A stretch of 64,000 nucleotides of DNA from a bacterium (GTDB lineage Bacteria; Patescibacteriota; Minisyncoccia; Minisyncoccales; CG1-02-41-26). The stretch is from positions 203-64,202 of the forward strand of contig JAUXAO010000004.1 in the NCBI GenBank assembly GCA_030619905.1, in the 5' to 3' direction. The stretch's first letter is position 1. Each line of letters begins with the position of its first letter. Shown in pieces: positions 972 to 14,986 of the stretch. The notes below the pieces were generated by a model. The model was not told the origin of the DNA and ran no database searches. It saw nothing but the letters and a program-made list of their open reading frames with translations. The position numbers and the translations under genes were made by a program.

Positions 972-998
972 AAAAATCGCCAAGAAGGCGGTTTTTTT
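972..998 (+). terminator. intrinsic terminator (AAAAATCGCC-AAGAA-GGCGGTTTTTTT)
   Basis: GC-cored hairpin with AAGAA loop followed by a T7 run. The same module recurs at 5874..5899 and in degenerate form at 3203..3224, 5419..5440 and 9657..9679. Confidence 0.7.
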
Positions 999-1072
999 GT
1001 CACCTTTCTTTCTCTCCATCGTTATATTAAGTAGAAAGGTCGTTAAGATATATAATTAATTATTAAAAGAAT

Positions 1073-1654
1073 ATGTTAAAGCCAATTACTACCGTTATTA
1101 TTTCATTGCTTATTGTTGTCGGTGTAAGCTACGGAGCAAGCCATTATATCACTGCTCCAGCAGCAGAAAACGCAAAAGACGCCGGCATTCAAACAATAGA
1201 AAAGGAGGTTGGCGGGGACTTTGAAATAGTTTTGGAGGCCAATCCCACTACCGGCTATCAGTGGACAGTGGAGTTTGATGAAGGGCTTATTGAATTGGTT
1301 GACAGAAACTATATTGTTCAGGAGCCAACCCTTTCAAAAGATGCAATGGGTGAATCTGTTATGGCTCCCAGAGGTGGAGAAATTCAGACCGAGGATTTTC
1401 CCGATGGTGCAAGAGACATTATTGACAGCAATCAGGTTCGAGAACAATGGGCACAGGATCAAATTGATGAAGGAGTTATAGGAATTGAGAACCCGGAAGA
1501 GTCAGAAATGGAGGTTCCGGTTGGTGCCGGAGGGCAGGAATCTTTCAAATTCCTTACTCTGAAAAAAGGAGAGACAGAAATAAAGTTTTCTTACGAGAGA
1601 TCCTGGGAGGAGGAACCGATTGAAACCCTGACCTACAGAGTGGTAATTAAGTAG
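1073..1654 (+). CDS. chagasin-family (I42) cysteine-peptidase inhibitor-like protein with N-terminal membrane anchor
   Basis: LEANPTTGYQWTVEF matches the NPTTG[YF]xW loop motif of the chagasin/ICP family. Hydrophobic N-terminus. AAAGGTCG leader motif at 1035. Confidence 0.75.
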   Translation: MLKPITTVIISLLIVVGVSYGASHYITAPAAENAKDAGIQTIEKEVGGDFEIVLEANPTTGYQWTVEFDEGLIELVDRNYIVQEPTLSKDAMGESVMAPRGGEIQTEDFPDGARDIIDSNQVREQWAQDQIDEGVIGIENPEESEMEVPVGAGGQESFKFLTLKKGETEIKFSYERSWEEEPIETLTYRVVIK

Positions 1655-1660
1655 GATTGC

Positions 1661-1690
1661 AAAAAGCAGGGCCAAGAGCCCTGCTTTTTG
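1661..1690 (+). terminator. intrinsic terminator
   Basis: AAAAAGCAGGG-CCAAGAG-CCCTGCTTTTT perfect hairpin plus T-run directly after the 1654 stop. Confidence 0.8.
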
Positions 1691-1700
1691 CTCTGAGATC

Positions 1701-1709
1701 GTGTAGAAT
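1701..1709 (+). promoter_or_regulatory. -10 box (GTGTAGAAT) placed 6 nt before the ATG, predicting a leaderless sigma-factor mRNA
   Basis: TAGAAT at 1704..1709. The A of the ATG at 1716 is the 7th nt downstream. No SD. Confidence 0.5.
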
Positions 1710-1715
1710 ATACTA

Positions 1716-2258
1716 ATGGAACAGGAAATCATTGAACAATGCAAAAAAGGAAACCTGAAGGAGTTTGAAAAACTCTACGATAGTTATTTTAAGAAAATAT
1801 ACAGGTTCATTTACTACAGAACCGGGCACAAAGAAACAGCAGAAGATATTACCAGCCAGACCTTTATTAAGGCCCTAGAGAAGATTCAAGGATTTGACCT
1901 CGGCAGAGGAACCTTTTCTGCCTGGATTTACTGCATTGCCCGAAATAAAGTAATTGATCATTATCGAACCAGAAAAAGCGAGCTTGATATTTCTGGAGTT
2001 TGGGGCTTGGGCAAAGATCCCAACCCGGATATTGAGGCCAGAGACAGGTTAAGGGAAGCGGAGAATTATCTGAAAAAGATTAAAAAAGACCAGAGAGAGA
2101 TTGTCTTGATGAGGGTTTGGGACGGCTTGTCTTACAAAGAGATTGCTGAAATTACGGGAAAGAACGAGGCAAACTGCAAGATGATTTTCTCCAGGACCAT
2201 AGGAAAACTCAAAGAAGAAATAGTTTTATTATTAATCCTATTAAGCATCTATGGATAA
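1716..2258 (+). CDS. ECF-type RNA polymerase sigma-70 family factor
   Basis: Region 2 (YRFIYYRTGHKETAEDITSQTFIKALE) and region 4 HTH (LSYKEIAEITGKNEANCKMIFSRTIGKLK). Size about 180 aa. Confidence 0.9.
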   Translation: MEQEIIEQCKKGNLKEFEKLYDSYFKKIYRFIYYRTGHKETAEDITSQTFIKALEKIQGFDLGRGTFSAWIYCIARNKVIDHYRTRKSELDISGVWGLGKDPNPDIEARDRLREAENYLKKIKKDQREIVLMRVWDGLSYKEIAEITGKNEANCKMIFSRTIGKLKEEIVLLLILLSIYG

Positions 2259-2847
2259 AAGAGTTAAAGAAATCTTAGAAGATCTCTATCTCATAGACAG
2301 GAGCTTGAGAAAGCACCAAAATGAGCTGGAGAAGCTAATTGAAAAGCTTTTAATGGCAAAACCCGATGTTGAGATTGACGAAGTCTTCAAAGCAAAACTA
2401 AGAGCTGAATTATTAGACAGGGTAGCTGAGTTAAAAGCCAAAAAAGCCTTATTTTGGAATTTCTTTAATTTCCAAAAGTTTTCTTACGTCCATGTCTTAA
2501 GCTTATTTCTTCTTTGTGCTCTTTTGATTGTTCCTGTTGTTTATTATTTGAACAGACCGGCGCCAGCAGAAGAGCCACCCATGCTTGCCAATCCAGCTTC
2601 GGTTTTTTGCGAAGAGCAGGGAGGCGTTTTAGAACATAGAATGGTTGAGGCGGGGCAGAAGGGATTTTGCATATTTGAAGACGGCTCAGAGTGCGGCCAG
2701 TGGGACTTTTTCCGGGGAGAATGCCAGAAAGGAGAAAGATTCTGCAAGGACATGTGCGGTGACGGCATATGCCAGGAGTTTGTCTGCATGGCTCTTGGCT
2801 GTCCTTGTCCTGAGACAAAAGAAACTTGTCCGGAAGACTGCAAATAA
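2251..2847 (+). CDS. membrane protein coupled to the ECF sigma (anti-sigma-like), with extracytoplasmic DUF333-like domain and Cys-rich tail
   Basis: 8-nt overlap with the sigma gene. Cytoplasmic helical N-term, one TM (VHVLSLFLLCALLIVPVVYYL), then NPASVFCEEQGGVLEH...GFCIFEDGSECGQWDFFRGEC (DUF333 pattern) and CGDGICQEF...CPCPETKETCPEDC. Confidence 0.75.
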   Translation: MDKRVKEILEDLYLIDRSLRKHQNELEKLIEKLLMAKPDVEIDEVFKAKLRAELLDRVAELKAKKALFWNFFNFQKFSYVHVLSLFLLCALLIVPVVYYLNRPAPAEEPPMLANPASVFCEEQGGVLEHRMVEAGQKGFCIFEDGSECGQWDFFRGECQKGERFCKDMCGDGICQEFVCMALGCPCPETKETCPEDCK

Positions 2848-2865
2848 ATAATATCTGCAGTTTTT

Positions 2866-2874
2866 TGGTATAAT
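2866..2874 (+). promoter_or_regulatory. extended -10 promoter TGGTATAAT
   Basis: T-tract plus TGgTATAAT, followed 8 nt later by the AAAGGTCA motif and then ORF 2915. Confidence 0.55.
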
Positions 2875-2914
2875 AAGAATGAAAGGTCAAAATTAATAAT
2901 TTAATAATTATTTT

Positions 2915-3058
2915 ATGATGCAAAAAAATTGGATGCTAGGATTTTTTGGGTTCATGGCAGTAAGAGAGATACAAGGACTTTTAGCTGGAAATTATTTAGA
3001 AGCTATTTGGCTTATTTGGCTTGTGTGGTTTATTTATTTTATACCTAAGAAATCATAA
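2915..3058 (+). CDS. small hydrophobic protein (47 aa), below the ORF-track cutoff
   Basis: ATG 2915 to TAA 3056..3058 gives MMQKNWMLGFFGFMAVREIQGLLAGNYLEAIWLIWLVWFIYFIPKKS. It has its own TGgTATAAT promoter and the AAAGGTCA leader motif 31 nt upstream, as neighbouring genes do. Confidence 0.55.
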   Translation: MMQKNWMLGFFGFMAVREIQGLLAGNYLEAIWLIWLVWFIYFIPKKS

Positions 3059-3061
3059 AAT

Positions 3062-3232
3062 AGATTCTAACATCGCCTAGTCAAAACAGGTATCTCAAAA
3101 TACTCTTTTGTGGTTATAAAATAGGTTCAAACGTCGTCTGCTTCCTGGAGTTTTTGAAGCCCGAGATTAGATTCTCGGGTTTTACATTTATCACACAAAA
3201 AATTCGCCAAGAAGGCAGTTTTTTGGTAGAAT
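3062..3232 (+). repeat. intergenic repeat element, copy A (GATTCTAACATCGCC ... GGTATCTCAAAATACTCTTTTGTGGTTATAAAATAGGTTCAAACGTCGTC ... terminators ... TGgTAGAAT)
   Basis: Near-identical 50-nt block shared with 5336..5387. Good hairpin CCCGAGA-TTAGAT-TCTCGGG plus TTTT at 3160..3183. Degenerate CGCCAAGAAGGCAG-T6 module. Ends in the extended -10 at 3224..3232. Confidence 0.7.
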
Positions 3233-3238
3233 GAAAGA

Positions 3239-3508
3239 ATGGAAGAAAAAATTAAGAAACAAAAAAGAAATCCTTTACCGATAAGGCTTCAGATGGCTAT
3301 CATCACAGCAACTTCGTTTTTTATTGCTTTTTCAGTGATAAAATACATTCGGCGAGGCCAATTCGATCTAATAGAAACATTGATTGGTGCTTTAATATTT
3401 TTTGTTGTTTTTTATCTCCTATCGCAAGTGTTTTACAAAAGAAGACTGAAGAAACAAGAAAAAGAGATGGCTGACAAAGATAAAGAAGTTGAGGTAAAAC
3501 AAAAGTAG
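3239..3508 (+). CDS. small membrane protein (89 aa)
   Basis: Two hydrophobic helices and a Lys/Glu-rich tail. The ATG lies 6 nt after TAGAAT (predicted leaderless). Confidence 0.6.
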   Translation: MEEKIKKQKRNPLPIRLQMAIITATSFFIAFSVIKYIRRGQFDLIETLIGALIFFVVFYLLSQVFYKRRLKKQEKEMADKDKEVEVKQK

Positions 3509-3519
3509 AAATAACTAAT

Positions 3520-3768
3520 ATGAAATTATCTATTGACGCAAAACTTGGTATTTTAACCGTAATTTGTCAATTGGCTATTCTTGTCGTGTGTAAAAATATC
3601 CTTCATATCCAAACGAACCTTCTAACAGGTTACGGACCCATTTTCGTATTTTTGATATATGTATTTTCAAAAGATCAAATGAAAGAATCGGATCGGAATC
3701 CTTTATATTGGGGTGCGGCAATAATATTTGTAACCTTAGCCTTAATAATATTGTATGCGTTTTTCTAA
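3520..3768 (+). CDS. small membrane protein (82 aa)
   Basis: Three hydrophobic segments. Tightly follows 3239..3508. Confidence 0.55.
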   Translation: MKLSIDAKLGILTVICQLAILVVCKNILHIQTNLLTGYGPIFVFLIYVFSKDQMKESDRNPLYWGAAIIFVTLALIILYAFF

Positions 3769-3835
3769 TTTTGATAGAGTAGAAGAAATGAAGTAAAATT
3801 AAAGTAGAAAACTATTAAACAAGCGAAAAACAAAA

Positions 3836-4570
3836 ATGACAAACAAAACACAAAAACTAATAGGCATAAAGGATCTATTGCGAAATTCTTGGAATATCTA
3901 TAAAAAGGATTTCAAGAAGTTTTTAGTAATTGCGGTTATCTTTTTTGGAATCACCAGTTTAATGATGACCTTTATCGGCCTGGAAATTCCTCAAATTCCC
4001 GAAGCGAAAGTCCAGCCTGCGCCTACTCCTACTTTTACTTTTATGCCCACCAGAGCTGAACCACTTTTTACTGTGCCCTGGTATTTGTTCTTCCTTATTA
4101 TTTTAACTACTTTCTTCATTAGTATCTGGGGAAATGCTTCTCTTATCTCTGCGATTAAAGAAGTTCCTAAAGATTGGAAAGTTAAGAGTGCACTTAAAGA
4201 AGGTTGGTCTAAATATTGGCCTTTCTTTTTGGTTTCTCTATTAACTGGGCTGGTCGTTGGGTTGGGATTTCTGCTTTTAATAATTCCCGGTGTTATTTTT
4301 GCTGTCTGGTTTGTTTTTTCTGCTTACATAGTCATCTGCGAAGACAAAAGAGGATTTAAAGCCCTTTCCAGAAGCAGACAATTAGTTAAAGGATACTGGT
4401 GGCCGACAGCCAAGCGAGTTTATGCTGTAATGATTATTGTCATTCCTCTTTCTCTGGGCGCCCAATTTATTCCTTATCTTGGTCAGTTTGCCTATCTGAT
4501 TCTCTTTACTCCATTTTTTATAATTTACAACTATCTCATCTACCAAAATCTTAAAGAAATAAAAGGTTAA
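3836..4570 (+). CDS. polytopic membrane protein
   Basis: 244-aa ORF with several long hydrophobic helices. Abuts the next gene (stop TAA then ATG). Confidence 0.65.
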   Translation: MTNKTQKLIGIKDLLRNSWNIYKKDFKKFLVIAVIFFGITSLMMTFIGLEIPQIPEAKVQPAPTPTFTFMPTRAEPLFTVPWYLFFLIILTTFFISIWGNASLISAIKEVPKDWKVKSALKEGWSKYWPFFLVSLLTGLVVGLGFLLLIIPGVIFAVWFVFSAYIVICEDKRGFKALSRSRQLVKGYWWPTAKRVYAVMIIVIPLSLGAQFIPYLGQFAYLILFTPFFIIYNYLIYQNLKEIKG

Positions 4571-5272
4571 ATGACCAGAAATAAAAAAATCATTATTGTC
4601 TTATTTGCTATTGTAATTTTATTAAGTAGTGTATGGTTATTGTTAGATTCTCACACTAAATGCAAATTGATTTACGGAAAGAATATCTGCAATTTTTATG
4701 AAATGATGGATACTGTAAACCACAATCCCGAAAGTTCCGATTTTGAAAAGGCAGTGGAATTGTGCCGAGAAATGGAAGATGTTCCTAAAAAAGATAGCTG
4801 TTTTGAATATATCGCCCAAGTGGTTTCTTTTTATGATATAGAGAAAGCAAAAGAGGCGTGCGGTGAAATTAGAGAATTTGACGGAGTTCATAGTAGGGAA
4901 GATTGCTATAGCATGGTTGAAAAATCAATTGAAGAAAGATTAGCTGAATCTGCGGTTATTGCCTTTATGGAAGCTCGCATACAAAGGAATGAAGAGATGG
5001 CTCTTCCTTGGCTCACAGATAATGCTGAGGGGCAGTATCTTTTACGAAGCGATTTGCCTTTAACTGGGCTTTCAAATCCTCATTTTGCTGATTTTGAGGT
5101 TTTAGAGAGAGAAAAATTGGATGACGCCCAATTTAAATTCAGAGTAAGAATTTACGAAGAATATACTGGACAGGGCAGGGTAGGATATTTTGACGAAACC
5201 TTGATTGTAATAAAAAGCGAAGATAATTATCTAATAGATTCCTTTGAGCGAAGCGAATATACCAATCTCTAA
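4571..5272 (+). CDS. hypothetical protein with N-terminal membrane anchor
   Basis: 233-aa ORF. N-terminal TM (IIIVLFAIVILLSSVWLLL). No recognisable family. Confidence 0.6.
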   Translation: MTRNKKIIIVLFAIVILLSSVWLLLDSHTKCKLIYGKNICNFYEMMDTVNHNPESSDFEKAVELCREMEDVPKKDSCFEYIAQVVSFYDIEKAKEACGEIREFDGVHSREDCYSMVEKSIEERLAESAVIAFMEARIQRNEEMALPWLTDNAEGQYLLRSDLPLTGLSNPHFADFEVLEREKLDDAQFKFRVRIYEEYTGQGRVGYFDETLIVIKSEDNYLIDSFERSEYTNL

Positions 5273-5296
5273 ATTAGGATTAGTAACTCATTAGAC

Positions 5297-5448
5297 AGGT
5301 TCTAACATCGTCCAACCTTAGGGCTAATTAAAACCGGTATCTCAAAATGCTCTTTTGTGGTCATAAAATAGGTTCGAACGTCGTCCCACTTGCGGAGCTC
5401 CGATTTTTCAGCCGCCGTCTCGCCAAGGAGGCAGTTTTTTGGTAAGAT
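5297..5448 (+). repeat. intergenic repeat element, copy B
   Basis: AGGTTCTAACATCGTCC (5297..5313), 50-nt block 5336..5387 (3 mismatches to copy A by eye), internal second unit AGGTTCGAACGTCGTCCC, degenerate CGCCAAGGAGGCAG-T6, then a duplicated TGGTAAGAT box. Confidence 0.7.
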
Positions 5449-5466
5449 TTGGTAAGATAAGATAAA

Positions 5467-5826
5467 ATGAACAAAGAAGTTAATAATTATATAAAAAAAC
5501 AAAAATCTCCCCAGAAAGAAATTTGTCAGAGATTAAGGAAGATTATTTTGAAGACGCTTCCTGATATTAAAGAGGAGTTAAAGTGGGGGACACCGTGGTA
5601 TGAAGGAAAGTATTATATTGTTGCGCTCAGAGACCACGTGAATATGGGATTTACTCTTGGGGGGTTATTGAAAAAATCTGAAAAGCTATTAGAAGGAACT
5701 GGGGAATATATGAGACATATTAAGATTTATTCTTTGAAAGATATTGATGAGAAGAAGATTATAAAGTTAGTGAAAATGACAACGAAAGATGTTTATGATT
5801 ATAGAAAAAGAAGAAAAAATAAATAA
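5467..5826 (+). CDS. DUF1801 (YdhG-like) domain protein
   Basis: ICQRLRKIILKTLPDIKEELKWGTPWYEGKYYIVALRDHVNMGF is the typical YdhG/DUF1801 pattern. Confidence 0.7.
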   Translation: MNKEVNNYIKKQKSPQKEICQRLRKIILKTLPDIKEELKWGTPWYEGKYYIVALRDHVNMGFTLGGLLKKSEKLLEGTGEYMRHIKIYSLKDIDEKKIIKLVKMTTKDVYDYRKRRKNK

Positions 5827-5840
5827 TTATCTCACTAAAC

Positions 5841-5899
5841 AGGTTCTAACATTGTCCGTTCCTCGGATCCGAGAAAAATCGCCAAGAAGGCGATTTTTT
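5841..5899 (+). repeat. intergenic repeat element, short copy C, including a perfect terminator
   Basis: AGGTTCTAACATTGTCC (5841..5857), palindrome CTCGGATCCGAG, then a 10-bp hairpin AAAAATCGCC-AAGAA-GGCGATTTTT (5874..5899) running into TGaTAAGAT. Confidence 0.7.
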
Positions 5900-5916
5900 G
5901 ATAAGATAAGATATAT

Positions 5917-6903
5917 ATGAGTAGAAAAAAAGCTAAAAAATTAATAATCAAAACAAAGTTAGAAATAATCCCAACCACCCCTTTTCACTTTGATTCAACA
6001 ATTTATAAACCTGGCCATTTTTCTACTACTGATACGGAATGGATAGCTGGTAAGCGTTGGCAAACAACGCTATGGCAGGAAGAAACCTTAGGGCTACTTT
6101 TTGAGGATAAAGGAACATTGATGAAACCCAAGATAAATTTATATGTTTTCTCAGAAAGAAAATTAACAAAAGATTTTCTAAGAAGTGTAAGAAATGAAAT
6201 GGTTTACAGATTCAATCTTGATTTAGATTTAAAAGAATTTATAGATAGCTTTAAACATGACCTTGTCCTTAGAGCTTGCCTCAAAAAATTAAAAGGAATG
6301 AGGCCAATGACCCACGGTTCTTTATATGATTATTTAGTTATTGCCATAGTGCTTCAAAATGCCCCTGTTAGAAGAAGTGTTAGCATGATGCAATCTCTTT
6401 TTGAGAACTACGGTGTTTTATTGAGATACGATAGAAAGGAACTTTATTGTATGTGGAAACCTGAAGTCATGGCCAATGTTCCAGAAGAAGAGCTTAGAAA
6501 ATTAAAAATAGGATACAGAGCAAAGAGCCTTATTAGAGTCTCTAAACCTTTTGCCAGGGGAGAAATTAATGAAATGGAACTTAGAAAGAAATCCCCAGAA
6601 GAACAAAAGAAAATTTTGTTAGGCTTATATGGAATAGGTCCTCAATCTGTAGGATACATTATGGGCGACATATTTCACCACTGGGATTTTTTAGAACACA
6701 TTTCTCCTTGGGAAGGAAAAATTCTTTCTAAAATAATATTTGGTACAAAGATAGATAGACCTGTTTCTGAGAAAAAACTTCTTGAATTCTTTGAAAAATA
6801 CGAAAAATACAAAGCTTTAGCAGCCAATTATATTTGGGAAGATATTTTCTGGAAAAGAAAAACCCAGAAAATAGATTGGCTTGAAAAAGAAATTAGATTA
6901 TAA
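5917..6903 (+). CDS. HhH-GPD superfamily DNA glycosylase (AlkA/Ogg-like)
   Basis: Helix-hairpin-helix LLGLYGIGPQSVGYIMGD. Size and layout match base-excision glycosylases. Confidence 0.7.
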   Translation: MSRKKAKKLIIKTKLEIIPTTPFHFDSTIYKPGHFSTTDTEWIAGKRWQTTLWQEETLGLLFEDKGTLMKPKINLYVFSERKLTKDFLRSVRNEMVYRFNLDLDLKEFIDSFKHDLVLRACLKKLKGMRPMTHGSLYDYLVIAIVLQNAPVRRSVSMMQSLFENYGVLLRYDRKELYCMWKPEVMANVPEEELRKLKIGYRAKSLIRVSKPFARGEINEMELRKKSPEEQKKILLGLYGIGPQSVGYIMGDIFHHWDFLEHISPWEGKILSKIIFGTKIDRPVSEKKLLEFFEKYEKYKALAANYIWEDIFWKRKTQKIDWLEKEIRL

Positions 6904-6912
6904 TCAAAGAAT

Positions 6913-7275
6913 ATGAAATTAACTGAAAAACAATTAGATTTATTAAATCGTAGAAAGTTAGTAGTTTTGGCGACTTCAAGTTTAGATGGAAAACCGAGAG
7001 CGATTATTGTTGAAGTTAACCAGGTTAAAGATGATAAGATAATTATTACTGATAATGAGATGGAGACAACGAGAAAGAATTTATTAGAAAACAAAAATGT
7101 TTTCATTTTAGCTTTTGAAGAAGATTATCATTATGGATTAAAGATTTCAGGCGAGGCAGAGTATTATACAGAGGGTGAATACTTTGGTTTTGTAAAGAAT
7201 TTAGAAACTAATAAAGATTTTTCTCCTAAAGGAGCAGTAGTGATAACAGTAAAAGAAATAGTTGAATTTAAGTAA
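6913..7275 (+). CDS. pyridoxamine 5'-phosphate oxidase-like FMN-binding split-barrel protein
   Basis: VVLATSSLDGKPRAIIVEV...IIITDNEMETTRKNLLENKNV pattern. About 120 aa. Confidence 0.65.
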   Translation: MKLTEKQLDLLNRRKLVVLATSSLDGKPRAIIVEVNQVKDDKIIITDNEMETTRKNLLENKNVFILAFEEDYHYGLKISGEAEYYTEGEYFGFVKNLETNKDFSPKGAVVITVKEIVEFK

Positions 7276-7290
7276 TTATCCCAATTAGCC

Positions 7291-7360
7291 GGGTTCTAAC
7301 ATCCACTATTAGCCAAAGAAAAAAATTGCCAATCTATTTTTCAACGGAGGCGGTTTTTTG
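7291..7360 (+). repeat. intergenic repeat element, degenerate copy D
   Basis: GGGTTCTAACATCC flanked by direct ATTAGCC heptamers, then a degenerate hairpin plus T6 running into TGaTAGAGT. Confidence 0.5.
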
Positions 7361-7472
7361 ATAGAGTGGAATAATTTTGGTTAAGTAAGAAGAAATGGCA
7401 TTGAATTTTTGAAAATGGTATAATTAAATAATTTTTAAAGGTCGAGAGTTCTTAATTAACTTATTCTAAAGT

Positions 7473-7787
7473 ATGGAAGAAGTAACAAAGAAAGAAAAAA
7501 ATACTGGTATGGCAATTGTTGCCTATATCCTTTTCTTTATTCCCTTGTTGACTGATGCAAAAAATGACCCTTTTGTGAAATACCATGTCAAACAGGGATT
7601 AAGTCTTTTTCTGGTTGCTGTTGCGATTCGAATAATAGCTTACATTCCTATTTTCGGCTGGGCTTTAGTTTGGCCTTTAAACATTCTTCTTTTTGTCCTT
7701 TTTATTATCGGGGTTATGCATGCTCTTAATGGCGAACAAAAACCACTTCCTGTAATTGGTAAATTCGGTGAGAAGTTTAAATTTTAA
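7473..7787 (+). CDS. DUF4870-like small membrane protein
   Basis: KNTGMAIVAYILFFIPLLTDAKNDPFVKYHVKQGLSLFLV matches the DUF4870 signature. TGgTATAAT at 7416..7424 and the AAAGGTCG leader. Confidence 0.7.
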   Translation: MEEVTKKEKNTGMAIVAYILFFIPLLTDAKNDPFVKYHVKQGLSLFLVAVAIRIIAYIPIFGWALVWPLNILLFVLFIIGVMHALNGEQKPLPVIGKFGEKFKF

Positions 7788-9574: not shown

Positions 9575-9656
9575 TTATTTTCCTTTCTTTATTTAATTAA
9601 AATTATATATATTCAATCTTTAATAAAAAGATAAAATTTTGGTTTTCGTTAATTTT

Positions 9657-9709
9657 CTGTCGCTAAGGAAACAGTTTTTGCTTTATTTAAGTTCTGACAT
9701 TATCTCACC
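9657..9709 (+). repeat. decayed copy E of the intergenic module
   Basis: CTGTCGCTAAGGAAACAGTTTTT resembles the CGCCAAGGAGGCAG-T6 module. AAGTTCTGACATTATCTCACC resembles AGGTTCTAACATCGTCC. Confidence 0.4.
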
Positions 9710-9725
9710 AGTGGAATATATTTAC

Positions 9726-9753
9726 TCGAGAGAGTTATTGTCTCGGTTTTTTT
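9726..9753 (+). terminator. hairpin plus T7, running into TGgTAAGAT (9758..9766)
   Basis: TCGAGA-GAGTTATTG-TCTCGG followed by TTTTTTT. Confidence 0.55.
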
Positions 9754-9803
9754 ATTATGGTAAGATTAAAAAAGGTCGAAAAGATTAATCATTAATAAAA
9801 AAT

Positions 9804-10583
9804 ATGACAAATATAATTTATACGATTTTAGGAATAATTGTTTTTATAGTTTTAATCTCTATTAGGCAGATTAATCAGTATGAAAATGGAGTTAGATTTA
9901 GGCTGGGAAAGTATGTTGGTATAATGAAACCTGGATGGAGATTGGTTTGGCCAATTTTCTATTTCTATAAAAAAGTAGATTTAAGAGTAAAAGCTGTAGA
10001 TGTGCCAAACCAAGAGGCAATTACTAAAGATAATATCTCAGTTAGCGTGAATGCTGTTATTTATTATAAAGTTAGAGAAGCTGACAAAGCGGTTTTAGAA
10101 GTAGAAGATTTTTACTATGCTATTTCACAATTAGCCCAAACAACAATGCGAAATGCCGTAGGGCAAGTGGATTTAGATGAACTTCTTTCTCAAAGAGACA
10201 GAGTTTCAGAAAACATAAGAAGCATTATTGATAAAGCTTCTGATCCCTGGGGGATTAAAGTCGATAATGTAGAATTAAAGGATATAACATTGCCAGAAGA
10301 AATGAAGAGAGTGATTGGTAAACAGGCCGAAGCAGAAAGAGAAAAAAGGGCAATAATTATTAAAGCTGAAGGAGAGGTAATTGCTGCTGAGAATCTGGCC
10401 AAAGCTGCCAGGACTCTATCAGAGGCCAAAGGAGCTCTTCATTTAAGAACTCTTCAGTCAATCAATGATATAAGTTCTGATAAATCAAATACAATTGTTT
10501 TTGCTGTTCCTCTAGAAATCTTGAGAGCCTTTGAAGCACTTGGAAAGAAATTCTCAGGAGAGAATAAGAGCGAGGATAAATAA
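9804..10583 (+). CDS. SPFH/band-7 (stomatin/slipin) family protein
   Basis: N-terminal TM, YENGVRFRLGKY, ITKDNISVSVNAVIYYKV, EAEREKRAIIIKAEGE: the classic SPFH layout. Confidence 0.9.
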   Translation: MTNIIYTILGIIVFIVLISIRQINQYENGVRFRLGKYVGIMKPGWRLVWPIFYFYKKVDLRVKAVDVPNQEAITKDNISVSVNAVIYYKVREADKAVLEVEDFYYAISQLAQTTMRNAVGQVDLDELLSQRDRVSENIRSIIDKASDPWGIKVDNVELKDITLPEEMKRVIGKQAEAEREKRAIIIKAEGEVIAAENLAKAARTLSEAKGALHLRTLQSINDISSDKSNTIVFAVPLEILRAFEALGKKFSGENKSEDK

Positions 10584-10661
10584 GATTAAAAAACATAGAA
10601 TTATCAAAAAAGCGATTTTTTGATATACATACCAAAGGTCAAAATTAATAATTAAAATATT

Positions 10662-11276
10662 ATGTCTAAAATAACAATAGCGGTTATTATTATAATAATT
10701 GCAGTATTAGGTTACTGGTTTTATCAATTAACATTAGTGCCTGAAGAAGAGACATTATCAGAAGGAAGCAAAGAATGTGTTGTTGATGATGATTGTGTTG
10801 TTTTTGGTGAAGATGGGGATTGTAATTGTGGTTGCTACAATAAAGACTATCTTCCATCAGGAACTGGCGGAGAATGTTTTTGTGCTGCTCCGGTTTCTTG
10901 CAAATGTTTAGATGGTGAATGTCAGGAAGTTTTTGAAGGAGAAGTAGATAATTTTAACAAGTGCGTAGAAGCAGAATATCCTATTCTTGAATCTTATCCT
11001 CGTCAATGTAAAATATCAGATACCCAGACATTTGTAGAAGAACATTGCATTAAAGAAGGGACTGATGAGATACTGACTTTAGTTGATGCTGAACAAATTG
11101 CCATAGATAGCGAATGCGGTGACAGGCTCAAAGAGAATCATGTGTGTAATAAAGATACTGGGACATGGTGGATAGATTTGGATATTGAAAGACAAGGATG
11201 CGGTCCTGCCTGCGTTGTCAATGTTGTCACCAGAGAGGCGTCTATAAATTGGAGATGCACGGGAGTGATAGAATAG
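10662..11276 (+). CDS. cysteine-rich secreted protein
   Basis: Signal anchor, then many Cys (CVVDDDCVVFGEDGDCNCGCYN...CFCAAPVSCKCLDGEC). AAAGGTCA leader. Confidence 0.65.
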   Translation: MSKITIAVIIIIIAVLGYWFYQLTLVPEEETLSEGSKECVVDDDCVVFGEDGDCNCGCYNKDYLPSGTGGECFCAAPVSCKCLDGECQEVFEGEVDNFNKCVEAEYPILESYPRQCKISDTQTFVEEHCIKEGTDEILTLVDAEQIAIDSECGDRLKENHVCNKDTGTWWIDLDIERQGCGPACVVNVVTREASINWRCTGVIE

Positions 11277-11325
11277 AGTTTTGAGTTTATTTAAGTAAAG
11301 GTTGGAGATTAAAACTAAATAGGAC

Positions 11326-11784
11326 ATGAAAATGAAAAAACATTCTTTAGTTAGAACAATCTATCTTTATATTTTTGCTTTACTGGGTTTGGTGCTTTTA
11401 ATCATTGGCGGGGTTAATTTCGTTAATATGGCACTTAAGGCTTTTATTTTTACTCAGGCTGAAGAGGAACAAAGAATTCTTTACAAACAAGTGCCAGTTC
11501 CTTTTTCAATTTCAAGAGTTGAACAACTTGAGAAAGAAATAGAGGCAGGGGAAGAAGTGTGTCTCTCTGAAGAAGAAAAAATTAGTATTGAGAATTGGTT
11601 GACTGATTATAATAACTGGAAAGAAGATAGGTTAAAGATTGATCCAATAACTTCCCGAAGACATCGAGATGCATCTTTGAATTTATCTTTGATTTTGATT
11701 GGTCTGCCCTTATATCTTTATCATTGGGAGATTATTAAAAGAGAAACTGAAAATAAAGAAAAAGGTAAGAATATCAAAAAGTAG
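11326..11784 (+). CDS. membrane protein (two TM helices flanking an acidic loop)
   Basis: 152-aa ORF. The start could be ATG 11326 or 11332. Confidence 0.6.
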   Translation: MKMKKHSLVRTIYLYIFALLGLVLLIIGGVNFVNMALKAFIFTQAEEEQRILYKQVPVPFSISRVEQLEKEIEAGEEVCLSEEEKISIENWLTDYNNWKEDRLKIDPITSRRHRDASLNLSLILIGLPLYLYHWEIIKRETENKEKGKNIKK

Positions 11785-11854
11785 CTAAGATAAGAAATAA
11801 ATTCTTCGCCTTCGCCTTTTGGTGGAGGCGATTTTTTGATAGAATAAATATATT

Positions 11855-12703
11855 ATGGCATCTTTATACGTTATAAATTCAAGAGGCGAGAAAGAATTAT
11901 TTTCTTTACAAAAAGTATATAGATCGGCAAGATGGGCTGGAGCTCCTAAAGAATTATCTAGGAAAATTGCTAAGGTTATTGAAAAAGAAGCTTATCCAGG
12001 AATCAAAACTTCAGAAATTTTCAAAAAAGTAAAAAGGTTACTTCGTCAGAAAACTCCAGGAGCTGCTTTGAGATTTAATTTGAAAGAGGGGATGAGAAAA
12101 TTAGGGCCGACTGGTTTTCCGTTTGAGAAATTCATTGGTGAAATCTTTAGAAAATTGAATTTTAAAGTAGGAATTAACCAACATTTGCCTGGTTCTTGTC
12201 TTAGAGATTACGAAATAGATTTTTTAGCTGAAAAAGGGAATTTAATATATGTTGGTGAATGCAAATATCGTAATTTTCCTGGAGAAAGAGTGCATTCTAA
12301 AGATGCTTTGGCAAACCATGCTCGCTTTTTAGATATTTTGAATGGTCCTTTTTTCAAAACAAAAAAATACAGAAATTTTAGGATAAAAACCATATTGGTT
12401 ACCAATACAAAATTTACTAACCGAGCGAAAAACTATTCTAATTGTGTAGGCATTAAAACTTTAGGTTGGAAAGTTCCAAGAAATAAAGGATTGGAATATT
12501 TAATAGAGAAAGAAAGACTTTATCCGGTTACTATTCTTCCATCTTTAAATAAATACTTAAAAGACGTTTTTGTTTCTGAAAAAATAATGTTAATTGAGGA
12601 TGTATTGAAAGTTGATCCTCAAAAATTTTCTAAAAAATTTAAGATATCTGTCAAATATCTTTATCCCTTAATTAAAGAAGCAGAAACTTTATTAGAAAAA
12701 TAA
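11855..12703 (+). CDS. ATP-cone domain fused to a restriction-endonuclease-like (Mrr/PD-(D/E)xK) domain
   Basis: N-terminus LYVINSRGEKELFSLQKVYRSARWAG...IFKKVKRLL is the ATP-cone pattern. Core DYEIDFLAEKGNLIYVGECKYR is a PD-(D/E)xK-type D...E.K motif. Confidence 0.7.
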   Translation: MASLYVINSRGEKELFSLQKVYRSARWAGAPKELSRKIAKVIEKEAYPGIKTSEIFKKVKRLLRQKTPGAALRFNLKEGMRKLGPTGFPFEKFIGEIFRKLNFKVGINQHLPGSCLRDYEIDFLAEKGNLIYVGECKYRNFPGERVHSKDALANHARFLDILNGPFFKTKKYRNFRIKTILVTNTKFTNRAKNYSNCVGIKTLGWKVPRNKGLEYLIEKERLYPVTILPSLNKYLKDVFVSEKIMLIEDVLKVDPQKFSKKFKISVKYLYPLIKEAETLLEK

Positions 12704-12707
12704 AAAT

Positions 12708-14156
12708 ATGAAAAAAATATATTCTTATCTATTAATGGGCTTTTTAGTTTTATTTCTTCCTGTCTTAATTTCGGCGGATAGAGGAATGGTGGTTTGGCCT
12801 CCTGAAATTCGTTTAGACCAATCTGCCCAAAATGCAATTGTTGCCTGGAATGGCAGTGAAGAAGTAATAATCCTTTCAGTTGATTTAGAAAGTTCTTCTG
12901 ATATTACTGCTTTGGGAATTATACCTCTGCCCTCTAATCCTTCTGATGTTGAAGAAGGAAGTTTTGAGTCTTTTGACAAGTTAATAGAAATTATGAATGC
13001 CAAAATGGAAGATATTAGAAACCAGTGGAAAACATTAGGGGAAGGACCAGAAGAAGCCTCATCTGCTGGAGTAGAGATTACTTTTCATAAAAGAATCGGG
13101 GCTCATGATGTAACCATAGTTAAGGTGAATGATTTAGACTATTTTTTAGAATGGATTGAAAATTTTGCTCATGAAAAAGGATTGGAAGTGAAAGAAATTT
13201 CATCGGGATTCAAGGCAGGAATAGCTAATTATTTAAAGCGTGATATAAAATATTTTGTTTTTGATGTTATTGAAGCTGGTCAGGAAAAAGAGAGTATAAA
13301 ACCTTTAATTTATCGTTTTGATTCTGATTTCCTTTATTATCCTATTTTAATAAGCGGGGTTTCAGAGATTAAAGAAAGCCAAACAGAAATTAATCTTTTT
13401 CTTATTACAGAAAAAGAAGTTGAATTTCCTGATATTCCTTATACTTACTATAGTTATCATTGGCCTAGAAGTTACGGTTATCCTGTAGAGTTGACTAAAG
13501 AGGAGTTAGAAGAAGTTTCCCAAGAAATAGCAGATTTATTTGAAAAAGAAGCCAATGTGAGAGAAGTCTCTTTATATGGCAGATTAAATGATCTAAAAAG
13601 AGATTTAATGATTTATCCTTATGTTTGGGACCAGGATTTAGGGATAGGAAATTCTGGAGAAGAGGTAAGATCTTTGCAAAAAGTATTAATCAATGAAGGG
13701 GTTTGGGAATCAGGAGTTGGAGCTACAGGTTATTTTGGACAAATTACTAAAACTGCTTTAGCAAAATTTCAAGAGAAATTCAGTCAAGATATTTTAAAAC
13801 CCTTTAATCTTGAATCCGGAACAGGATATTTCGGTTCAAAAACCAAAGATTACTTAAAAAGATTATCTTTATCAATAGAACAAGAAGAATTAAGCCCAGA
13901 GGAATTGACTTTTAATCAAAACTTAAGTTTAGGCATGCGAGGTGAAGATGTTATAGCCTTACAAGAAATATTAATAGAAGAGGGAGTATGGCCAAGACCA
14001 GACATTGGAGCAACAGGATATTTTGGTTCTATTACCAAGGAAGCGGTAATTAATTATCAGGAAAAGTACGCTTCAGAAATTCTTGAACCTTTAGGGTTGA
14101 CTAAAGGCACTGGTTTCGTTGGATCTTCAACCCGGCTTCATTTAGAAAGAGATTAA
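12708..14156 (+). CDS. secreted protein with DUF2330-like N-domain and two C-terminal peptidoglycan-binding (PG_binding_1) repeats
   Basis: Signal peptide. Two repeats GEEVRSLQKVLINEGVW...GATGYFGQITKTALAKFQEKF and GEDVIALQEILIEEGVW...GATGYFGSITKEAVINYQEKY. Confidence 0.7.
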   Translation: MKKIYSYLLMGFLVLFLPVLISADRGMVVWPPEIRLDQSAQNAIVAWNGSEEVIILSVDLESSSDITALGIIPLPSNPSDVEEGSFESFDKLIEIMNAKMEDIRNQWKTLGEGPEEASSAGVEITFHKRIGAHDVTIVKVNDLDYFLEWIENFAHEKGLEVKEISSGFKAGIANYLKRDIKYFVFDVIEAGQEKESIKPLIYRFDSDFLYYPILISGVSEIKESQTEINLFLITEKEVEFPDIPYTYYSYHWPRSYGYPVELTKEELEEVSQEIADLFEKEANVREVSLYGRLNDLKRDLMIYPYVWDQDLGIGNSGEEVRSLQKVLINEGVWESGVGATGYFGQITKTALAKFQEKFSQDILKPFNLESGTGYFGSKTKDYLKRLSLSIEQEELSPEELTFNQNLSLGMRGEDVIALQEILIEEGVWPRPDIGATGYFGSITKEAVINYQEKYASEILEPLGLTKGTGFVGSSTRLHLERD

Positions 14157-14249
14157 TCATGAAGGATTGTCTTCGCTTTTTGATGAAGATGATTTTCTGG
14201 TAGAATAGAAATATCAAGGTCAAATACAAGTAAATAATATTTAAAAAAT

Positions 14250-14471
14250 ATGGACAATAAAACTTTAAAAAGTTTGAGGGAAGATTTAATAGGGGAGTTG
14301 GCTGCTATTAATCAATATCAGGAGCACATAGATGAGATTGACGATGAAGAGGTTAAAAAGATTCTAAGCCATATTAGAGATGATGAGAAAGAACACGTTG
14401 CTGAAATAACAAAGATTATCAGAAAATTGGACGAAACCCAGGAAGAGAAGTTTCGAAAAGAAGGGCTTTAA
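14250..14471 (+). CDS. EncFtn-like (encapsulated-ferritin family) ferritin-like protein
   Basis: LIGELAAINQYQEHIDEI...KKILSHIRDDEKEHVAEITKIIRKLD matches the EncFtn pattern (LIxELEAxxxYxQ...ILxHxRDEEKEH). Confidence 0.65.
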   Translation: MDNKTLKSLREDLIGELAAINQYQEHIDEIDDEEVKKILSHIRDDEKEHVAEITKIIRKLDETQEEKFRKEGL

Positions 14472-14554
14472 TCTGATAGAGAAATTTGAATGATATTCAA
14501 TTGGAAGAGTAAATAAAAAAAATCGCTATTGTAACAGTTTTTTGATATAATAAA

Positions 14555-14986
14555 ATGATGAAAAAATCTTTGATAATAACATTTTGGGTATTAATAGGAT
14601 CTTTTCTTTTCGTAATAGGTCAATTTTTTATCCCGGCAGTTACAGAATTATTCAGAGGTTCTTTATTTTTTTTATTGCCATTTGTTATTTTTTCTTTATT
14701 GGGCGGACTATTGATATTTTTAACTCTGAAGGAAAAAATAGAAGAAAAACTTAAAAAACTCTTAATATTAACCGGAGCTTCAGCAGCTGGATTTTTTGTC
14801 TTTGTTTTATTACACAATGTTTTTTATGCCTTGGGCGTAATAGCCAGTAGTATTGCTATCTTAAGATATCTAATGGAGATTCTTCATGTGACGTTTTTCC
14901 TTATTGCAATTTTTATTTGTCCTTTAGGGTTTTTAATTGGTGCCATAGGTAGTATAATCGTTCTTGTTAAAAGAAAAAGATTATAA
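14555..14986 (+). CDS. polytopic membrane protein
   Basis: Four hydrophobic helices. TGaTATAAT ends 3 nt before ATG 14555 and 6 nt before the in-frame ATG 14558, so 14558 may be the leaderless start. Confidence 0.6.
   Translation: MMKKSLIITFWVLIGSFLFVIGQFFIPAVTELFRGSLFFLLPFVIFSLLGGLLIFLTLKEKIEEKLKKLLILTGASAAGFFVFVLLHNVFYALGVIASSIAILRYLMEILHVTFFLIAIFICPLGFLIGAIGSIIVLVKRKRL

Follow-up and report, generated by a model that had tools for sequence, protein, structure and literature searches.

The stretch of DNA analysed here (the window; 64,000 nucleotides, 34% G+C) carries repeated sites at which the T-run of a hairpin appears to lead into an extended -10 box, with a start codon a few nucleotides further on. 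These sites raise the question of how one transcription unit is ended and the next begun, and of how the ribosome finds the first gene, within such compact boundaries. The original prediction had read them as terminators fused to promoters, several of which would give leaderless mRNAs, and that reading is followed here through the window and into related genomes.

Boxes and hairpins in the window

Sequence inspection placed all eleven predicted boxes at their expected coordinates. The window holds 13 matches to T5-G-R-TANNNT, whereas shuffles give 2.32 +/- 1.44 and 0/100 of them reach 13; seven of the 13 are + strand sites from the interval 2.8 to 14.6 kb, each directly upstream of a gene. The features are as follows, with the strand in brackets.

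972..999 (+): stand-alone conserved terminator with A-tract, TCGCCAAGAAGGCGG hairpin and T7, no fused -10; -11.4 kcal/mol, z -3.5
1659..1715 (+): strong hairpin 1659-1691 (-25.3 kcal/mol), TAGAAT 1704-1709 with no TG extension, 6 nt, ATG 1716; ECF sigma factor gene (Sigma70_ECF match from residue 4), predicted leaderless
2836..2874 (+): weak hairpin over stop codon, T6, TGGTATAAT 2866-2874 (folding, box search); leadered mRNA predicted (AAGGTC 2883, ATG 2915)
3197..3241 (+): canonical composite of A-tract, TCGCCAAGAAGGCAG hairpin, T6, TGGTAGAAT 3224-3232, 6 nt and ATG 3239; predicted leaderless (TCGCCA-17-TAGAAT spacing)
5417..5469 (+): TCGCCAAGGAGGCAG hairpin, T6, TGGTAAGAT at 5440 and 5450 (a 10-bp tandem duplication), 8 nt, ATG 5467; DUF1801 protein gene, predicted leaderless from the second box (5450)
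5872..5919 (+): A5, TCGCCAAGAAGGCGA hairpin, T6, TGATAAGAT 5899-5907, 9 nt, ATG 5917 (-13.1 kcal/mol); HhH-GPD protein gene, predicted leaderless or with a 2-3 nt leader
7320..7424 (+): degenerate hairpin, T6, TGATAGAGT 7359-7367, then a better box, TGGTATAAT 7416-7424, preceding AAGGTC 7438 and ATG 7473
9726..9766 (+): weak hairpin, T7, 4 nt, TGGTAAGAT 9758-9766; leadered mRNA for an SPFH protein predicted (AAGGTC 9772, ATG 9804)
10603..10629 (+): A6-GCGA-T6 palindrome with no G+C stem (-0.7 kcal/mol), imperfect box TGATATACA at 10621; AAGGTC 10635, ATG 10662
11806..11857 (+): strong 11-pair hairpin (-20.4 kcal/mol), T6, TGATAGAAT 11837-11845, 9 nt, ATG 11855; ATP-cone/Mrr-like protein gene, predicted leaderless (same architecture at orthologues)
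14163..14206 (+): hairpin (-10.4 kcal/mol on folding), interrupted T-run, TGGTAGAAT 14198-14206; leadered mRNA predicted (AAGGTC 14216, ATG 14250)
14516..14560 (+): decayed module (family D2), A8-TCGCTATTGTAACAG-T6 without pairing (0 kcal/mol), TGATATAAT 14543-14551, ATG 14555, then ATG 14558 six nt after the box
27229..27287 (+): hairpin, T5, 13 nt, TGTTATAAT 27270-27278, 6 nt, ATG 27285; DgkA gene (DAGK domain from residue 13), predicted leaderless
42886..42900 (-): rpmB (L28), TATTAT at -12 to -7 from the A of ATG 42888; predicted leaderless
43606..43647 (+): rpsL promoter, TTGACA, 17 nt, TGCTAATTT, 10 nt, ATG 43645; 2-3 nt leader predicted
63201..63214 (+): TATAAT, 5 nt, ATG 63212; RNase H-like protein gene, predicted leaderless
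AAGGTC(G) leader motifs (+): 1036 (1036..1041), 2883, 7438, 7790, 8495, 9772, 10635, 14216, 17272, 18040 and 19875; AAGGTT at 11298

The terminator at 972..999 comes after a conserved non-coding module at 912-969. The homology of the 14198 site to five other genomes starts at the box. The rpsL start at 43645 is an addition to the predicted starts close behind a box.

Folding gave clear hairpins at 1655-1692 (-25.3 kcal/mol), 11795-11837 (-20.4), 5865-5899 (-13.1), 2830-2866 (-11.4) and 14160-14198 (-10.4), moderate or weak ones at 3190-3224 (-7.1 kcal/mol), 7318-7359, 5405-5440 and 9715-9754, and none for 10590-10621 and 14508-14543, so that the hairpin thought to precede every box is present at most of them and lost at two (10621 and 14543). 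The T-run does not flow straight into the box at 9758, where T7 and box lie 4 nt apart (tttttttattaTGG), nor at 14198, where the run is broken (gattttcTGG). Two boxes were correctly positioned but need qualification: the one at 10621 lacks the T that invariably closes the -10 hexamer, and the one at 7359 probably does not serve the next gene as promoter, the unlisted TGGTATAAT at 7416 being better placed for this.

A conserved hairpin and T-run ahead of the box

The hairpin and T-run had been recognized as such, but not that the hairpin at unit boundaries is one conserved sequence, TCGCCAAGRAGGCRR-TTTTTT. In the GTDB genomes searched, at least 137 exact copies of TCGCCAAGRAGGCRRTTTTTT were counted, spread over 118 stretches, against about 2 copies expected by chance in 596 Gb (our own arithmetic, uniform composition); nearly all carriers are Patescibacteria, for example Nealsonbacteria, Parcubacteria and Minisyncoccales, and identical 21-mers spanning hairpin and T-run were found in >100 species-level genomes. 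The hairpin is a lineage-wide conserved repeat rather than a set of independent terminators. Although the search left the sequence downstream of T6 unspecified, the following bases are strongly biased (+1 G in 126/137, +3 T in 128/137, +4 A in 115/137, +8 T in 112/137), and G[AG]TANNNT, most commonly as G(G/A)TAGAAT, directly follows T6 in 98/137 copies (72%), the remaining 28% having hairpin and T6 without any box. The hairpin lies after tRNA genes and after stop codons.

Two samples underlie the counts that follow. Related-genome loci picked for carrying the hairpin (~0.87 Mb) served for the module, the 468-box and the T-run/hairpin counts and for those of upstream orientation, stem sequence, -35 bases and GGAGG, while a hairpin-independent sample of 80 metagenome loci picked by a protein (0.70 Mb, with some redundant contigs) served for the orthologue comparison, the second spacing count and the gap-size test. 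When the 26 nt just 5' of the T-run position were folded, a structure of <= -4 kcal/mol was obtained for 61% of T-run boxes and for 12% of those that lack a T-run (p = 1e-25), a coupling that fits a terminator U-tract. Stems at orthologous sites vary, with compensating changes, while T5-TGTTAGAAT-N6-ATG stays fixed, and stem variants tolerate G-U pairs more often than A-C. The commonest hairpin has only 5 bp and owes much of its predicted stability to pairing of A-tract with U-tract, so termination could be weak; the two window sites that keep T-run and box without a hairpin suggest that the T-run may matter for the promoter too. T-runs accompany 77/107 boxes with a co-directional and 7/16 with a divergent upstream gene, a weak test that depends on crude gene calls.

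Among 174 T-run boxes that had not been selected for the hairpin, TCGCC occurs in 52 and GGCGR in 70, and the hairpin sequence is conserved far beyond the needs of a terminator, which implies some other constraint as well. That constraint might act at the DNA level, hairpin and T-run being mainly a promoter or regulatory element in which TCGCC-N5-GGCGA is a palindromic operator or an unusual -35 plus spacer, the A-tract an UP element, and the recogniser a transcription factor or the lineage's sigma factor. The nearly invariant stem with little covariation, a spacing of exactly 17 bp between TCGCCA and the -10, which puts TCGCCA in the -35 register, decayed copies that retain loop, T-run and box but not pairing, and the presence of the module where the called upstream gene is divergent all suit such an element. 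We nevertheless regard it as rather improbable as the main role: T-runs are strongly coupled to foldable stems, orthologous stems vary in length and sequence so as to move the 5' arm out of the -35 register with the promoter part unchanged, copies without a box occur, also directly after tRNA genes, and the excess of G-U (on the transcribed strand) over A-C points to RNA rather than DNA. A DNA-level contribution would in any case be compatible with the terminator-promoter reading.

The repeat could also owe its conservation to belonging to a unit that is repeated, recombining or mobile, the fusion spreading by copying rather than by site-by-site selection, for instance within gene cassettes bounded by a tRNA-3'-like sequence and the hairpin/promoter and exchanged between related genomes. 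Such spread would account for the identical 21-mers across species; non-tRNA fragments resembling tRNA 3' ends (GGTTCTAACATCGTCC..GGAGC and variants, sometimes tandem) often lie just upstream, the window shows patchy DNA identity of 78-92% to different MAGs with breakpoints at these elements, and degenerate copies resemble decaying repeats. The surroundings of the copies yielded no terminal inverted repeats, target duplications, integrase or transposase, however, and the hairpin varies at orthologous promoters as local evolution predicts. We consider this explanation unlikely, and mobility would explain spread, not function, remaining compatible with the module as both terminator and promoter.

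Predicted promoter boxes, start codons and leaders

In the gap-size test a box lies 5-9 nt upstream of 1-3% of genes with gaps <30 nt and of 25% at gaps of 60-120 nt. The box is thus confined to genes with real intergenic gaps and, standing before the first genes of units and not inside operons, behaves as a promoter and not as a ribosome-binding site. Hairpin-less promoters in the same genomes favour T, T and G at -35 to -33 (60%, 52% and 30%), and the hairpin 5' arm TCGCCA, 17 bp upstream of the -10, shares the register of this TTG. The -35, of which no hexamer had been thought evident, is not wholly absent.

Box-to-ATG distances are as originally given for 1716 and 3239 (6 nt each), 5467 (8 nt), 5917 and 11855 (9 nt each), 14555 (3 nt) and 14558 (6 nt), and outside that span for 27285 (6 nt), 63212 (5 nt) and rpmB on the minus strand (TATTAT + 6 nt). 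Each proposed ATG is the earliest possible start of its ORF, and Pfam domains begin at residues 3-22 of the proposed proteins, the L28 profile position 1 aligning to residue 3 of rpmB. After 98 hairpin-linked boxes the first ATG follows at 6, 7 and 8 nt in 30, 10 and 10 cases; behind the 468 TGNTANAAT boxes that lack the searched hairpin, an ATG opening an ORF of >=60 codons lies at 6/7/8/9 nt in 40/10/18/8 cases (background 0-4), and the 80 protein-chosen loci replicate this with 26 ATGs at 6 nt against a background of 0-5. The anticipated short spacing thus appears in relatives as a sharp peak at 6-8 nt, both in ~0.87 Mb and in an independent 0.70 Mb.

Might the pattern arise by chance in A+T-rich intergenic DNA? 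The low G+C content, a generic promoter and terminator scan of the window that found no enrichment, and box-N6-ATG in the window alone (4 against 2.27 expected, not above chance) would allow it, and the significance of box-N6-ATG comes from its tie to ORF starts and its recurrence in related genomes, not from the window count. Copy number, spacing peaks, shuffles, hairpin coupling and the gap test depart from chance by large and replicated amounts and refute this reading, to which we give practically no weight.

The SD motif expected to be missing at the predicted leaderless starts is nearly absent throughout: an SD-like motif precedes only 2/86 window genes, GGAGG precedes 5% of genes in relatives, and the only 16S 3' end recovered (L034), GGATCATTACTTTTT, is without CCTCC. 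Loss of the anti-SD in Parcubacteria has been published (PMC9297842, PMC10783764). An A/T-rich sequence lies upstream of nearly all starts.

A second signal, AAAGGTCG, marks the predicted 5' end of about 12 window units, some 35 nt ahead of the ATG. Each of the leader motifs is separated by 5-13 nt from the -10 box before it and by 27-38 nt from the ATG after it. The signal, apparently undescribed so far, is enriched where the gene encodes a membrane or secreted protein. It bears on a further possibility, that TANNNT, at its distance of 6-8 nt from the ATG, acts on leadered mRNAs as a non-SD signal for ribosome binding or translation in the style of GeneMarkS-2 group B, with promoters further upstream. 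An organism without SD motifs and with A/T-rich sequence ahead of its starts might use one, but the box is rare before operon-internal genes, bears the TG extension, is accompanied by a TTG at -35 where the hairpin is missing, and occurs also upstream of AAGGTC leaders, 30-40 nt from the ATG, hence is not tied to the start codon; we find such a signal very improbable.

Each in-silico test applied supported the reading of a terminator T-tract that continues into an extended -10 box and of a start codon lying at the expected transcription start site (TSS). The leaderless reading would hold for one class of the listed boxes only, about half being predicted to give leadered mRNAs that begin with AAAGGTCG. 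Spacings of 8-10 nt (5467, 5917, 11855 and rpsL) may give leaders of 1-3 nt that are not strictly leaderless. About 10 of 40 transcription units in the window look leaderless.

Known systems and the proposed explanation

Extended -10 (TGn) promoters with a weak or absent -35 include those with the Gram-positive -16 region TRTG and those of Helicobacter and Campylobacter with T-rich upstream stretches. The present boxes resemble them in the TG at -15/-14, the TAnAAT hexamer, T-rich DNA just upstream and a dispensable -35, but their T-stretch is a fixed T6 that is also the terminator U-tract, with a hairpin arm at -35. Intrinsic terminators of the A-tract/U-tract ('bidirectional') type share the A-tract, G+C stem-loop and U-tract after stop codons or tRNA genes; here, by contrast, one short stem (5 bp; TCGCC/GGCGR, loop AAGAA) dominates many species and the U-tract overlaps the next promoter. 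Correia elements of Neisseria are intergenic repeats bearing promoter and terminator, and like them the module is a short multicopy intergenic sequence with potential for both at gene boundaries; unlike those elements, which belong to one genus, it measures ~35-45 nt, shows no terminal inverted repeats or target-site duplications, and is common to a whole class-level lineage.

The 'group C' leaderless bacteria, Actinobacteria and Deinococcus-Thermus (GeneMarkS-2, PMC6028130), likewise start ~25-50% of their units without SD, from a Pribnow box that precedes the ATG of the first gene by 6-8 nt. Here, however, the host is a patescibacterium with a low-G+C, reduced genome, the box is of the extended -10 type, carries a T-tract and is joined physically to the terminator before it, and the remaining genes also lack an SD, which Actinobacteria keep on leadered genes; we found no report in the literature of leaderless units of this kind in Patescibacteria. 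Bacteroidota and some CPR are SD-scarce and without a CCUCC anti-SD (PMC9297842, PMC10783764), which parallels the absence of SD from nearly all genes and of CCTCC from the 16S 3' end of a relative. They record the loss in these two papers, which describe neither leaderless promoter-proximal starts nor the AAAGGTCG leader as a replacement.

Given the architecture and its enrichment, its conservation in many genomes, the coupling of T-run to hairpin, the restriction of the box to first genes and the near absence of SD motifs, we think it quite probable that this is an SD-independent genome whose unit boundaries are formed by a two-function terminator-promoter module. The span would be a row of short transcription units in a Parcubacteria/Nealsonbacteria-like genome without SD pairing. 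Termination, promoter activity, TSS position and leaderless translation, which we infer from sequence, would then follow in two steps. An intrinsic terminator made of an A-tract, a short G+C hairpin (mostly TCGCC-AAGAA-GGCGR) and six T would end whatever lies upstream, be it a gene, a tRNA or a non-coding element. The final T of that run would double as the T of the extended -10, TG(G/A)TA(G/A)AAT, with little or no -35 needed and a possible weak contact at the hairpin 5' arm, TCGCCA, and RNA polymerase would be expected to begin transcription 7-9 nt downstream of the box. In one class the transcript would open with AAAGGUCG, followed by an A/U-rich leader of about 30-35 nt. In the other the start nucleotide would be the A of the ATG, and ribosome and initiator tRNA would bind the 5'-terminal AUG directly; about one quarter of the transcription units probably produce such mRNAs, with neither a leader nor a ribosome-binding site.

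Promoter boxes and their distance to the start codon

The window has a G+C content of 33.9%, holds almost all of its genes on the + strand and finds its DNA and pattern matches in Patescibacteria MAGs (Nealsonbacteria, Parcubacteria, Minisyncoccales, Wildermuthbacteria and Spechtbacteria). About 25 short genes, many encoding small membrane proteins, stand in a row at 972-14560, and the str/S10/spc ribosomal-protein cluster lies at 43.6 to 59 kb, where S5 is followed directly by L15 without an L30 gene. The original prediction described terminator T-tracts fused to extended -10 boxes, TGnTAnAAT, over 972-14560, and each of the boxes it placed at 2866, 3224, 5440, 5450, 5899, 7359, 9758, 10621, 11837, 14198 and 14543 is present there. 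TG at -15/-14 adjoins a TANNNT hexamer in ten of these eleven, while the box at 10621 (TGATATACA) has the TG but a hexamer without its final T. The T-run generally passes straight into the box, although at 9758 and 14198 the two are not strictly contiguous. The sequence T5-G-R-TANNNT occurs 13 times in the window against 2.3 +/- 1.4 times in dinucleotide shuffles, none of which gave 13; a generic promoter and terminator scan of the window showed no enrichment and missed most sites. TAGAAT at 1704 is a separate box without the TG extension, and a better box lies at 7416, downstream of that at 7359. An exact 10-bp tandem duplication at 5440-5459 (TGGTAAGATT/TGGTAAGATA) produces a pair of extended -10 boxes, of which the downstream one alone stands at leaderless distance (8 nt) from the ATG at 5467.

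The distances from box to ATG predicted for a series of putatively leaderless genes are as originally given, and rpsL is added to them here.

Distance from the -10 box to the ATG in the window (genes named by ATG position)
1716, 3239, 14558, 27285 and rpmB (minus strand): 6 nt
5467: 8 nt
63212: 5 nt
5917 and 11855: 9 nt
rpsL, ATG at 43645: canonical TTGACA-17-TGCTAATTT, 10 nt to the ATG

The accompanying statement that these starts have no SD also holds, the space between promoter and start being too short. Each ATG proposed as leaderless is the earliest possible start in its ORF, and Pfam domains in the encoded proteins start at residues 3-22. By an automatic count corrected by eye the window contains about 40 first genes of units, of which about 10 are predicted to be of leaderless type (1716, 3239, 5467, 5917, 11855, 14555/8, 27285, rpmB, rpsL and 63212), about 12 carry a leader of the AAGGTY type and a single one is SD-like; the remainder are unclassified. 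Within 1716-2847 the ECF sigma factor gene, predicted to be leaderless, overlaps by 8 nt the next gene, whose protein has a single transmembrane segment and a C-terminal domain rich in Cys and is likely an anti-sigma factor.

Related MAGs show the same spacing. A first set of loci was obtained by scanning the 21-mer of the conserved hairpin, with nothing specified downstream of its T6, over one genome per GTDB species; the set is therefore biased to hairpin-carrying genomes, and genes in the loci were called crudely, by taking the longest ORF and its first ATG. Among the matches listed, 98 of 137 hairpin copies carry G[AG]TANNNT directly after T6, mostly as GGTAGAAT or GATAGAAT, and here the first ATG follows the box by 6, 7 and 8 nt in 30, 10 and 10 cases. 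When all 468 TGNTANAAT boxes in this set and the window were considered, excluding the searched hairpins, ATGs opening ORFs of at least 60 codons were concentrated at 6 (40), 7 (10), 8 (18) and 9 nt (8) against 0-4 elsewhere, and ATGs without an ORF behind the same boxes gave only a small bump. The 6-nt peak recurs (26 against 0-5) in an independent sample of 80 metagenome loci, chosen not by the hairpin but for encoding relatives of the ATP-cone/Mrr-like protein of gene 11855, whose closer orthologues keep the arrangement hairpin-T5-TGTTAGAAT-N6-ATG. A box 5-9 nt before the ATG is found for 1-3% of genes with an upstream gap below 30 nt versus 25% of those with a gap of 60-120 nt, so that the signal is carried by the first genes of operons and hardly by operon-internal genes.

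The boxes were originally thought to have no evident -35 hexamer. This may be only partly so, since TCGCCA, an arm of the hairpin with four of six matches to TTGACA, sits in the -35 register, 17 bp from the -10 element, although longer hairpins at orthologous promoters displace it from that register. Promoters without a T-run present T, T and G at -35, -34 and -33. The box is also found 5-13 nt upstream of AAGGTC leaders that lie 30-40 nt from the ATG. Its tie to first genes, the TTG at -35 and the AAGGTC-linked boxes together fit a sigma-70-type extended -10 promoter and do not fit a translation signal.

The conserved hairpin as a probable terminator and possible promoter part

The putative terminator module that precedes the box may be written A5-TCGCCAAGAAGGCGA-T6, and four window copies have TCGCCAAGRAGGCRR-T6 in common. 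Of the hairpins originally placed ahead of the boxes, nine of the eleven window sites present a G+C stem-loop followed directly by at least five T, with varying strength: the stem-loop is clear at 1655, 2830, 5865, 11795 and 14160 and weaker at 3190, 5405, 7318 and 9715, whereas none is seen at 10590 (10590-10621) or 14508 (14508-14543). The 64-kb window holds 4-6 copies, and up to 4 occur in a single 8-kb block (locus L042). At least 137 copies of the 21-mer were found in at least 118 stretches, nearly all from Patescibacteria, where by our own arithmetic chance would give about 2 in 596 Gb at uniform composition. The few matches in bins labelled archaeal or proteobacterial are accompanied by the same modules, and these bins are probably mis-binned.

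Whether the element acts as a terminator or as part of the promoter was considered from several sides. A foldable stem (-4 kcal/mol or better) lies just 5' of the T-run at 61% of T-run boxes in relatives versus 12% of controls (p = 1e-25), and among the matches listed 28% of copies have the hairpin and T6 without a box. The hairpin directly follows bona fide tRNA genes in three loci (L012, L027 and L063). At promoters orthologous to that of 11855 the stems differ in sequence and length (TCGCCTTTCTGGCGG, TCGTCCCGCAGCTGCGGGACGA and CCTGCC..GGCAGG), and the changes covary. The coupling of T-run and stem, the boxless copies, the position after tRNA genes and the stem covariation favour an RNA hairpin, that is, a putative terminator. 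The window copies all follow + strand stops; an orientation test of terminator versus promoter went in the expected direction, but is underpowered and weakly discriminating. Against a pure terminator stand the stem TCGCC/GGCGR, far more uniform than structure alone needs, the TCGCCA arm in the -35 register and the decayed copies, which retain T-run and box. The element is probably a dual-use module in which a hairpin and T-run terminator is combined with a promoter, with the excess conservation of the stem arising from repeat-like spread or from a second constraint. As regards a MITE or Correia-like repeat, the terminal inverted repeats and target-site duplications of such elements are missing around the copies, and the stem inside the element is the sole inverted sequence.

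A further family of terminator hairpins, CCCGAGAG-TTTTT-CTCGGG(G)TTTT, recurs between genomes, at window positions 3160-3181 and in loci L101, L108, L114, L033 and L115. In the window it reads cccgagattagattctcggg (fold -18.2 kcal/mol) and lies 25 nt upstream of the hairpin at 3205, giving two terminators in a row. At gathering score only tRNA-Pro passes in an Rfam search of the whole window, and searches by E-value over 700-7500 (E < 5) and 59900-60700 matched neither the hairpin nor the upstream modules nor the leaders to a family. The 682 nt at 59978-60659, after the map gene, have a higher G+C content; their ORFs are all short and doubtful, Rfam gives no match at E < 1, and the stretch could be the remains of a gene or an RNA gene not yet described.

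Scarcity of SD motifs and the AAGGTC leader

An SD-like motif precedes 2 of 86 window genes, GGAGG stands before 5% of genes in relatives, and A-runs typically precede start codons in these genomes. The 16S 3' end of locus L034 (~93-190 of contig CAZKCH010000001.1), the sole tail among the loci, reads ...AAGTCGTAACAAGGCACGCGTAGCGGAAGCTGTGCGTGGATCATTACTTTTTTT (also given as ...GGATCATTACTTTTT), with a U-rich tail instead of the CCTCC anti-SD. The scarce motifs and this tail agree with published reports on the loss of the anti-SD: about half of Parcubacteria do not have it (PMC9297842), and Wolfebacteria and Campbellbacteria are SD-scarce and without CCUCC (PMC10783764).

A second class of predicted mRNA carries a leader with the motif AAGGTC.

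AAGGTC-type leader motifs in the window
AAGGTC: 1036, 2883, 7438, 7790, 8495, 9772, 10635, 14216, 17272, 18040 and 19875
AAGGTT: 11298

The motif, usually AAAGGTCG, stands 27-45 nt before the ATG and is followed by A/T-rich sequence; in the upstream regions of related loci it is confined to one range of positions, 32-45 nt before the ATG, and is found there in 60-odd genes. Its start, 5-13 nt after the -10 box, is the predicted 5' end. An N-terminal hydrophobic segment (signal peptide or transmembrane) is encoded by 65% of AAGGTC genes versus 28% both of leaderless and of other genes (odds ratio 4.7, p = 3e-9), and in the independent sample by 9 of 13 AAGGTC genes versus 21% (p = 3e-4). No Rfam match to the leader was found. 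Two other roles were considered for the motif and rejected. As a substitute for the SD it would pair with the 16S 3' tail, but the one tail, that of a relative (L034), has no complement to it and the motif's distance of 27-38 nt is wrong for an SD. As the -10 element of an ECF sigma promoter it would call for a GAAC-like -35 element, yet none is conserved 16-17 nt upstream and sigma-70 boxes are found 5-13 nt upstream instead.

The long gap at 17222-17643, ahead of the gene for an RRM-type RNA-binding protein (17644), was filled by the crude gene call with an antisense ORF. It contains a second AAGGTC at 17477, and an unlisted small membrane-protein gene probably starts at 17306 (TATAAT, 6 nt, AAGGTC leader).

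Accompanying modules, DNA exchange and significance

A module (aaCAG)GTTC[T/G]AAC[A/G]TCGTCC-N5-9-GGAGC, which resembles the 3' half of a tRNA (T-loop and acceptor strand), is often in tandem and usually lies between stop codon and terminator hairpin.

tRNA-3'-like module
Window: 3064, 3124, 5298, 5371, 5842, 7292 and ~912-936
Elsewhere: many loci, e.g. L038, L052 and L114

It is called a tRNA neither by ARAGORN nor by Rfam. The homology between the window and locus L048 stops exactly at this module, which may have arisen as an att-like or recombination scar or may act in processing. A second non-coding module, AGGCTAGTGCTCGGTTCGAGAGACCGAGAGGCAT (hairpin CTCGGT/ACCGAG), is found at 937-969 of the window and in L004, L023, L026, L078 and others; at no fewer than 13 sites it has the tRNA-like module on one side and the terminator hairpin on the other, and it has no Rfam match. 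A divergent 5S rRNA or tRNA at 852-968 was rejected, having no ARAGORN or Rfam support and consisting of modular non-coding sequence seen elsewhere, as was minus-strand coding by the tRNA-like module and hairpin, where frames are short, have no start codons and shift between modules. DNA identity to MAGs is patchy, at 1-875, 4661-5313 and 14193-14471 (91% to L114, 92% to L048 and 75-81% to L066, L002, L082 and L093), with unrelated flanks, and the 14193 block runs from promoter box to stop codon. The pattern suggests that related Patescibacteria shuffle or exchange cassettes made of a promoter and its gene.

Both the extended -10 promoter and the A/U-tract terminator are textbook elements. In the -10 element 6-8 nt before the start, the restriction to first genes and the lack of an SD, the predicted leaderless unit of the window and its relatives shares the features of the GeneMarkS-2 'group C' architecture of Actinobacteria and Deinococcus-Thermus, in which a Pribnow box lies 6-8 nt before the ATG (PMC6028130). 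The literature searched contained no paper tying leaderless mRNAs, terminators or promoters to Patescibacteria, CPR or Nealsonbacteria, and within it the group C-like architecture in Patescibacteria, the U-tract physically fused to the TG box and the lineage-wide conserved hairpin sequence look new. A joint reading, which we consider rather unlikely as a whole, is that Parcubacteria devoid of the anti-SD have rebuilt expression on one boundary module, from which two SD-independent mRNA classes would be launched, one leaderless and one with a 5' AAAGGUCG about 35 nt before the AUG. Here AAAGGUCG would act in translation or targeting as a new, sequence-specific signal preferring membrane and secreted proteins, and the near-invariant TCGCCAAGAAGGCG hairpin, often with the tRNA-3'-like module, would have a dedicated factor that reads it and would form the junction at which gene cassettes are exchanged.

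A large part of bacterial diversity belongs to the Patescibacteria, but to our knowledge almost nothing is known of how they start and stop transcription and start translation, the published knowledge being only that many are without an anti-SD. One large clade now gains a concrete, testable answer: consensus sequences for promoter (T6-G(G/A)TAGAAT) and terminator, a start geometry for leaderless genes and a second leader motif. Its practical uses lie in calling start codons in CPR genomes, where SD-tuned gene callers will misplace starts, in predicting operons, in spotting mis-binned CPR contigs and in designing expression cassettes now that genetics is emerging for cultivated Patescibacteria. 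The prediction also takes widespread leaderless gene organisation, so far a feature of Actinobacteria and Deinococcus-Thermus, into a lineage of low G+C content and reduced genomes.
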